Positions 47,102 to 48,032 are shown, counted from the first letter of the stretch. The stretch: DNA of 64,000 bases from Escherichia phage Turkey5 (PQ471516.1), one strand, 5' to 3'. The notes: generated by a model not told the origin, from the sequence alone. Translations and numbers: made by a program.

Positions 47102-47130
47102 AGCTTGTGCTCCCTTTTCTAATTTAAGCT
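47102..47130. terminator. Bidirectional rho-independent terminator
   Basis: A-tract, hairpin GGGAGCTTGTGCTCCC, T-tract; sits between convergent genes. Confidence 0.75.
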
Positions 47131-48032
47131 GCACTTACAACATAAGTACATTCAGCAGTATGTGAACCATCAACTGTAGTTACGATAACACTAGCATTAC
47201 CTTCACCAACTAATATTACAAAACCTGTTTCAGATACGGTTAGTACATCGTCATTAGTACTTGACCATACAACATCTTTGTTAGCTGCATTATCAGGCAG
47301 AACCGTTGCAACTAGTAATTCAGTACCACCAATTGGGCCATTACTTGATGTTTTACTTAAAGTAACACCAGTAACTGGGGTATTGACAACATATGCACAA
47401 GATGCTACTTTAGAGCCATCAACTGTTGTTGCGTTGACTGTTGCAGAACCGTTACCAACTAGAGTTACTAATCCAGAATTAGACACTGTGAGTACTGCGT
47501 CATTAGTACTTGACCATACAACTGATTTATTTGTTGCATTTTCAGGTAATACAGTTGCAACTAGTGTTTCAGAACCACCAATCGGACCATTACTAGAATT
47601 TTTATTCAATGAAATACTTTCGACTGGAACAACAACTGCGACATACTTAGTCGCGTACTTACCAGTTTGTACTTCATTGCCATTAGTAAGAATTACTTTA
47701 TGGGTGAAAAATTTATATGCAAAACCGAGTGCTTCCATAGTTGTTGCATCATATACTTTAACAGCGAATTCATCACGACCAAGTGCACTTGCAATTTCTT
47801 GGGCAGTGGCTGATAAATCAAGTAGGTTACGATTTTTATCTCGACCAACCATTGATACTCTTTGATAAACAGTAGTTGAATCACTATCAACTAAGTCAAA
47901 CATGCGAGTACTACACTCGTTGATAATGTATAGTTCTTTATCAATTTCTTGAGCACTGTGATCAGTTGCTGCAAAAACACAGATACCACCAACGTTGAAT
48001 GGCAATTCACCAAATTTAGCTATAGGCTTCAT
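47124..48032 (-). CDS. Big_2 (bacterial Ig-like group 2) tandem-repeat protein with unknown N-terminal domain
   Basis: two ~80-aa repeats: ...SSNGPIGGSETLVATVLPENATNKSVVWSSTNDAVLTVS...VDGSKVASCAYVV and ...SSNGPIGGTELLVATVLPDNAANKDVVWSSTNDDVLTVS...VDGSHTAECTYVV; only minus-strand gene. Confidence 0.7.
   Translation of the reverse strand: MKPIAKFGELPFNVGGICVFAATDHSAQEIDKELYIINECSTRMFDLVDSDSTTVYQRVSMVGRDKNRNLLDLSATAQEIASALGRDEFAVKVYDATTMEALGFAYKFFTHKVILTNGNEVQTGKYATKYVAVVVPVESISLNKNSSNGPIGGSETLVATVLPENATNKSVVWSSTNDAVLTVSNSGLVTLVGNGSATVNATTVDGSKVASCAYVVNTPVTGVTLSKTSSNGPIGGTELLVATVLPDNAANKDVVWSSTNDDVLTVSETGFVILVGEGNASVIVTTVDGSHTAECTYVVSAA

Follow-up and report, generated by a model that had tools for sequence, protein, structure and literature searches.

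The reverse-strand gene at 47124..48032 of the window (by which we mean the whole stretch of Escherichia phage Turkey5 DNA that was analysed, 64,000 nucleotides) probably encodes a virion surface protein made late in infection, with an N-terminal anchor and outward-facing Big_2 immunoglobulin-like domains that would act as a low-affinity adhesin in the manner of T4 Hoc and T5 pb10. We put the probability of this reading at about 0.7. Its broader part, that the product is a virion surface protein, appears well supported, with virion presence known from the orthologs CBB_112 and phAPEC6 gp347. The family was already represented in databases and virion proteomes, and it is a fairly ordinary kind of phage protein. 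What we add is the description of the N-terminal domain as a lineage-specific module, the evidence for a late promoter, the variable gene cassette around the locus, and natural one-domain recombinants.

Results

The window comes from an Asteriusvirus-like ("Rak2-like") jumbo myovirus and is 98.6% identical over 3 kb, and about 96-99% identical over 48 kb, to Escherichia phage vB_EcoM_JNE01, which has a genome of 355.6 kb. The gene, a 302-aa coding sequence in the ORF list, runs on the minus strand from an ATG start to a stop codon at 47124-47126, and a ribosome-binding site, AGGAG, was read in the sequence 6 nt before the ATG (48039..48043, minus strand). All other minus-strand ORFs of at least 100 aa in the window overlapped tiled plus-strand ORFs. 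JNE01, the first 50 kb of which aligns to window positions 13875-62741, has been annotated independently, and there the ortholog WOL22654.1 is the only minus-strand coding sequence in those 50 kb, which agrees with the earlier note that this is the sole minus-strand gene. The two proteins are 97% identical in amino acid sequence, and the two genes give an omega of 0.20.

The gene was also said to converge with its upstream neighbors through a bidirectional terminator, and folding upheld this. In the 38-nt gap to the convergent plus-strand gene, which ends at 47085, lies an intrinsic terminator for both strands (47092..47120) that consists of A7, GGGAGC, TTGT, GCTCCC and T4CT, with the hairpin itself at 47099-47114 and the A7 and T4CT runs as its flanks. 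The minus transcript folds at -17.6 kcal/mol (z = -4.8) with U7 after the hairpin, and the plus transcript at -17.0 kcal/mol (z = -4.1). A generic terminator scanner missed the element at 47092..47120, although it is a real feature, and in JNE01, CBB, GAP32 and K64-1 a hairpin with a T-run sits at the same place after the stop codon of the ortholog.

Genes nearby encode dCMP deaminase, ClpP-like, HslV-like, Sir2, Nudix and PhoH proteins. With neighbors of this kind, the reverse-strand gene belongs to a block of metabolic, early or middle genes rather than to a structural module. Membership in the family goes with a reverse-strand position near the dCMP deaminase, ClpP-like, HslV-like and Sir2 genes, and this is where the window gene was found.

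A T4-type late-promoter motif, TATAAATA, lies 32 nt upstream of the ATG (48064..48071, minus strand), a distance suitable for a T4-type late gene. It is the only copy in the 64-kb window, both strands counted, against 9.4 +/- 2.9 expected. The first 50 kb of JNE01 likewise holds one copy, at the ortholog, where 6.7 were expected, and the region from 100 to 150 kb holds two, where 5.4 were expected; both of these are intergenic and lie 18 and 33 nt upstream of genes on the same strand. The JNE01 genes behind these motifs match virion structural protein, baseplate wedge and baseplate hub-lysozyme families. Among orthologs, the same motif is found upstream in JNE01 and A4, and ATAAATA is found in CBB and GAP32; the exact motif is missing upstream of some, for example those of Munch and K64-1. 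The CBB study described ATAAATA before structural genes and a gp55-like sigma factor, CBB_244 (PMC5259590).

Judged by the motif and by analogy with T4 and CBB, expression would be late. With its own late promoter, ribosome-binding site and terminator, the gene looks like an insulated, self-contained late transcription unit, reversed within the early/middle metabolic block and placed head-to-head and tail-to-tail with its neighbors. The 108-nt divergent intergenic region combines the late motif with a near-consensus sigma-70 promoter directed at the plus-strand genes downstream. This sigma-70-like element (48081..48109, plus strand; TTGACA, 17 nt, TACAAT; 11 of 12 matches) was called in a promoter scan by consensus match only, and would restart plus-strand transcription beyond the reverse gene.

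Taken over all the DNA scanned, TATAAATA is strongly depleted, with 1 copy against about 9.4 expected in the window and 3 against about 12 in 100 kb of JNE01, and every copy stands directly upstream of a structural gene; the depletion suggests selection against stray late promoters. In JNE01 (136546-140979; 36546-40979 in locus L018), a 162-aa ORF that matches a baseplate hub/lysozyme family only at the family's C-terminal end (positions 727-885 of 887) adjoins the annotated hub/lysozyme gene; two genes downstream there is an HNH homing-endonuclease gene. This ORF and the hub/lysozyme gene may be a split gene.

The C-terminal half of the protein had been read as two tandem Big_2-like domains, and a Pfam search confirmed them: PF02368 (Big_2) scored 93.3 bits against a cut-off of 22.8 (E=8.8e-27) in two stretches. 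Domain 1 covers aa 135-217 and is encoded by repeat copy 1 (47382..47630, minus strand), and domain 2, the second Big_2 stretch, covers aa 218-300 and is encoded by repeat copy 2 (47133..47381, minus strand). They have the Ig-like beta-sandwich fold of Big_2 proteins, and the protein matches PHROG 215, 'structural protein with Ig domain', at E=2e-48. The direct DNA repeat of about 250 bp in the earlier note stands, with a spacing of 249 nt. Its identity, given there as 75-80%, is slightly lower at 71-76%: the 205-nt core (47164-47368 versus 47413-47617) is 76% identical, and the complete 249-nt units (47382-47630 versus 47133-47381) are 71% identical in nucleotides and 67% in amino acids. Tandem Repeats Finder reported no repeat in the gene, as is expected for two copies so strongly diverged.

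Between the repeat copies we obtained a dS of about 0.8-1.0 and an omega of 0.2-0.3, values that indicate an old duplication and purifying selection on both copies. Since the duplication is old, the repeat should be a weak recombination substrate, with the exception of one identical run of 25 nt, GTTGTATGGTCAAGTACTAATGACG, at 47498..47522 on the minus strand. This run encodes VVWSSTND, has its partner in copy 2 at 47249-47273, and is the longest in-register identity between the copies in both the window and JNE01. In a tree of the Big_2 domains of family members, domains 1 and 2 of the window and JNE01 were each other's closest relatives, and the two domains of GAP32, the seven of A4 and the three of P0098 grouped separately. 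This grouping by lineage implies that Big_2 duplications arose independently in several lineages.

The syntenic reverse-strand orthologs vary widely in how many Big_2 domains they carry: none in 121Q and phAPEC6, one in CBB, Munch and K64-1, two in the window, JNE01 and GAP32, four in the metagenomic locus L014, and seven in A4. Together with one-domain alleles at 90% identity or more, described below, these counts bear out the earlier suggestion that the repeat offers a route to copy-number variation.

The N-terminal domain (aa 1-134; 47631..48032, minus strand), presumed to be the virion-anchoring module, had been left unassigned, a description that no longer applies. Its matches are phrog_33171 (E=4.3e-18 over aa 1-118) and phrog_10468, two families with the label 'virion structural protein'. 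A profile of the domain, headed by the window protein, was searched against 1.84 billion representative proteins and returned only 98, nearly all of which carry the domain at residues 1 to about 125; the window protein, too, has this conserved domain of about 125 aa at its extreme N-terminus. On the C-terminal side of the domain, members of the family have nothing, as in proteins of 124-125 aa, or one to seven Big_2 domains, or else Invasin_D3, Big_1 or HYDIN-type Ig arrays, with which they reach 1859 aa. Among deposited phage genomes the domain is confined to Rak2-like jumbo phages, 59 of them, with genomes of 310-384 kb and 1-3 copies of the domain each. The N-terminal ~130 aa make up a conserved, lineage-specific domain of a jumbo-phage virion protein family. 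The domain shows zero non-synonymous differences from JNE01.

A second paralog with the N-terminal domain, of about 380 aa and with the annotation 'virion structural protein', is conserved across 60 Rak2-like genomes. None was found inside the 64-kb window; the JNE01 copy is at 259968-261122. In Erwinia phage Kaldavass (locus L011, 4992-6125), this paralog is also a lone reverse-strand gene among genes of the opposite strand.

Profile searches of the N-terminal domain against Pfam and the PDB, the latter also with the single sequence, found no relative. AlphaFold2 with an alignment of 73 sequences gave a confident model with a pLDDT of 94.7 and three domains, the N-terminal domain and two Ig domains, and with the single sequence a useless one (pLDDT 34). 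In the model the N-terminal domain is beta-rich with one helix. Three fold searches returned Ig matches only and left the fold of the N-terminal domain without classification. An apparent homology to Herelleviridae 'virion protein 4' (aa 42-302) was rejected, as it concerns the Ig part only; for the N-terminal domain the hhalign probability was 0.4%.

Across relatives, the reverse-strand genes form a cassette of 1-7 genes and 0.4-14.6 kb. It holds one gene in the window and four genes with the N-terminal domain in each of the loci L012 and L016, and in the metagenomic locus L014 (6993-21558) it extends to seven genes over 14.6 kb. Three of these seven (1859, 465 and 124 aa) start with the N-terminal domain; the other four (874, 713, 84 and 680 aa) are without it and have almost no family matches. 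Two short genes, 121Q gp472 (43 aa; locus L009, 3873-4004) and A4_466 (65 aa; locus L005, 2394-2591), are truncated remnants of the N-terminal domain and seem to be left over from larger cassette genes, for instance the one for the 1859-aa protein in L014.

The usual slot of the ortholog is between gp470 and gp473 (121Q numbering). In the lineage of the window and JNE01 the gene is displaced from it by two genes, to a place between the homologs of 121Q gp474 and gp475, and the ClpP-like gene and a gene of 86 aa (window 46089-47085) are on the opposite side of it compared with 121Q and A4. The shifted genes mark a local rearrangement around the cassette.

To close relatives belong the one-domain alleles. 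Clustering at 90% identity placed the 302-aa protein among nine members of 302 aa and three of 219 aa. The three short alleles are metagenomic and have a single chimeric domain, the 5' part from copy 1 and the 3' part from copy 2, with the switch from one to the other at gene nt 510-531 (Fisher p about 1e-11 to 1e-12), a position within the 25-nt identical run. One of them lies on an 8.7-kb contig with the gene order of the window. Such alleles are what unequal recombination between the repeats would produce, with the 25-nt run as the probable crossover site. All three, however, come from Logan short-read metagenome contigs (0.9-8.7 kb), and they could instead be assembly artefacts, in which case there would be no real copy-number variation among close relatives. 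In a de Bruijn graph, a k-mer shared by the units of a tandem repeat closes a cycle that assemblers can skip, and a skipped cycle would give exactly this copy-1/copy-2 chimera. The identical run in the window and JNE01 is, on the other hand, only 25 nt long, shorter than the k of 31 with which we take the Logan assemblies to have been built; the three samples yielded two different chimeric sequences; and isolate genomes do differ in domain number (121Q, phAPEC6, CBB, Munch, K64-1, GAP32, JNE01 and A4, as listed above). We therefore regard collapse of the repeat during assembly as rather unlikely, though it deserves some weight.

Domain 2 also differs among two-domain alleles. Of the 29 nucleotide differences from JNE01, 24 fall in a mosaic patch at 47215..47325 (minus strand). 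Gene conversion from copy 1 was considered as its source and rejected, since the two alleles matched copy 1 equally often (10 versus 10). Among the two-domain alleles of the cluster, the left and right halves of domain 2 are found in all four combinations; with a patch that was not copied from domain 1, this points to allelic recombination around the domain 2 segment. Similar mosaic patches are common along the 50 kb compared with JNE01.

The earlier expectation that an Ig-like phage protein would belong to the virion agrees with published proteomics of purified particles. CBB_112 was detected by mass spectrometry with 4 peptides and 24.3% coverage (PMC5259590), and phAPEC6 gp347 with 8 peptides and 75.2% coverage, the highest in the phAPEC6 table, where the major capsid protein reached 74.9% and the sheath 68% (PMC7247149). 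At 14.1 kDa, gp347 consists of the N-terminal domain only. Coverage is only a rough proxy for abundance, and the published data for the orthologs do not separate head from tail. In the 10 A cryo-EM capsid map of phAPEC6, a decoration layer and a fibre-anchoring protein at the hexamer centres were seen, neither of which was tied to a gene (PMC7247149). These capsid features without a gene make a capsid location of the protein plausible, though they are no proof of it. In the literature we found no cryo-EM assignment of the protein and no description of the variable cassette.

Discussion

The orthologs in Rak2-like phages (CBB_112, GAP32_111, K64-1 gp635, Munch_133, 121Q gp471, phAPEC6 gp347 and A4_464; PHROG 215 / phrog_33171) all share the N-terminal domain, at 26-56% identity, and resemble the window gene in their reverse orientation near the dCMP deaminase gene, late-type motif and terminator hairpin. 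They differ from it in the number of Big_2 domains, and the duplication in the window is independent of the one in GAP32. For the proposed way of working, T5 pb10 and T4 Hoc offer the nearest likeness. pb10 carries its anchor at the N-terminus and an Ig domain at the C-terminus, Hoc contains three Ig domains, and both are capsid decoration proteins at hexamer centres and proposed carbohydrate or mucus adhesins (PMC5292684). They and the window protein have in common an anchor domain followed by one or more exposed Ig-like domains (PMC5292684), and the model of the window protein shows this two-part architecture. In sequence, the window protein has no similarity to either and no homology to their capsid-binding domains, and its N-terminal domain is modelled as beta-rich with a single helix, as opposed to the alpha-helical anchors of pb10 and Hoc (PMC5292684). 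By analogy it would work like these proteins without being a member of their families. In gut phages, Ig-like proteins displayed on the virion have been shown experimentally to work as modular adhesins, whose binding changes with variation in domain sequence (PMC13370021); those, too, are Ig-like domain proteins of virions, but they belong to other phage groups, and the adhesin role here is putative.

We propose that the N-terminal domain of about 130 aa docks the protein on the particle. The T=28 capsid is the most likely site, the tail surface a less likely one. The two C-terminal Big_2 domains would reach out into the solvent and serve as a weak adhesin, like the Ig domains of T4 Hoc or T5 pb10. 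The displayed part would evolve fast, its Ig units duplicating independently in different lineages, being lost by unequal recombination within the conserved 25-nt stretch and being exchanged between alleles, while the N-terminal domain would stay constant.

A place on the tail, as a decoration of the sheath or collar or as the base of the 'hairs' of Rak2-like tails, is an unlikely but still serious alternative in our estimate. The orthologs in CBB, GAP32, K64-1 and RaK2 are labelled 'major tail protein', CBB and phAPEC6 have hair-like tail fibres and tail decoration proteins without a gene assignment, and the mass spectrometry of the orthologs mixes head and tail. The label, however, is not supported. 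PHROG matches to 'major tail protein' fall mainly on the Big_2 region, and the name was probably carried over from the Ig domains of tail-tube proteins of the lambda gpV type, which have a C-terminal Big_2 domain. Tail-tube identity was itself rejected: the best 'major tail protein' stretches begin between about aa 83 and 216, in most cases at 128 or beyond, the first 80 residues lie outside all of them, and the N-terminal domain has no tail-tube match. The window phage, unlike the lambda gpV-type case, is a myovirus, in which the sheath of the contractile tail encloses the tube, and the gene is neither part of a tail module nor near one. phAPEC6, moreover, is 'hairy' though its ortholog is without any C-terminal part, and the coverage of gp347, as high as that of the capsid protein, suggests a high copy number.

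The balance between the two parts of the protein could also be the reverse of what we propose, with the N-terminal domain as the functional core, a cement or hexamer plug that stabilises the giant capsid, and the Ig domains as dispensable passengers that bind nothing. Versions of 124-125 aa with the N-terminal domain only are common and abundant in virions, this domain is invariant with respect to JNE01 while the Ig domains vary, and the Ig number ranges from 0 to 7 with no obvious constraint. Passengers would hardly have been kept, however, since a duplication with a dS of about 0.9, nor be held under purifying selection at the omega of 0.2-0.3 found for both Ig domains; and the repeated expansion of Ig arrays in relatives, up to 1859 aa, speaks for selection on the displayed part. 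We consider this account improbable, to much the same degree as a tail location. A protein that is no part of the virion and acts in or on the infected cell, where it might serve surface modification or superinfection exclusion, would fit the position among metabolic and early genes and the occurrence of Big_2 in bacterial surface proteins such as intimin and invasin. Yet two orthologs were found in purified virions, the late-type promoter motif is like that of structural genes, and in place of the long hydrophobic N-terminal segment of a signal peptide, residues 1-130 are modelled as a folded beta domain; a role of this kind seems very improbable.

The virion surface protein that we favor allows a bolder and more tentative extension, which we think possible though on balance doubtful: the N-terminal domain might be the universal docking module of the T=28 capsid in Rak2-like phages, and the cassette a plug-and-play display locus. 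If so, the domain would be the 'fibre-anchoring' or decoration density at the hexamer centres of phAPEC6 and 121Q, and any C-terminal array could be loaded onto the head, be it nothing at all or as much as about 1,700 residues of Ig-like repeats, from cassettes of one to seven genes. Paralogs would then compete for the same sites, each lineage would have its own surface coat, and the capsid 'hairs' would be explained.

Ig-like display proteins influence how phages stick to host surfaces, mucus and epithelia, and Hoc and pb10 serve as display platforms. An N-terminal anchor that tolerates anything from zero to very long C-terminal additions would be a scaffold for engineering a very large capsid surface. 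The protein is also a testable candidate for the capsid densities without assignment in phAPEC6 and 121Q, and the locus documents a variable surface protein together with a concrete recombination route for changing its domain number.

The gene lies in a fast-changing part of the genome. Three window segments (50901-52350, 35701-35950 and 37151-37450) have 15-39 differences per 100 nt from JNE01 against a background of about 3%, and they resemble mosaic replacements; the first covers most of the PIN-PhoH gene (PhoH-like gene, 50950-52389). After the PhoH-like gene JNE01 has an extra gene of about 1.3 kb, WOL22662.1, for a hypothetical protein (JNE01 38331-39700 versus window 52392-52441), which is absent from the window. 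At window positions 1-25000, plus-strand ORFs of about 110-205 aa follow one another back to back in a long run, which recalls the arrays of related genes reported for phAPEC6 and 121Q.
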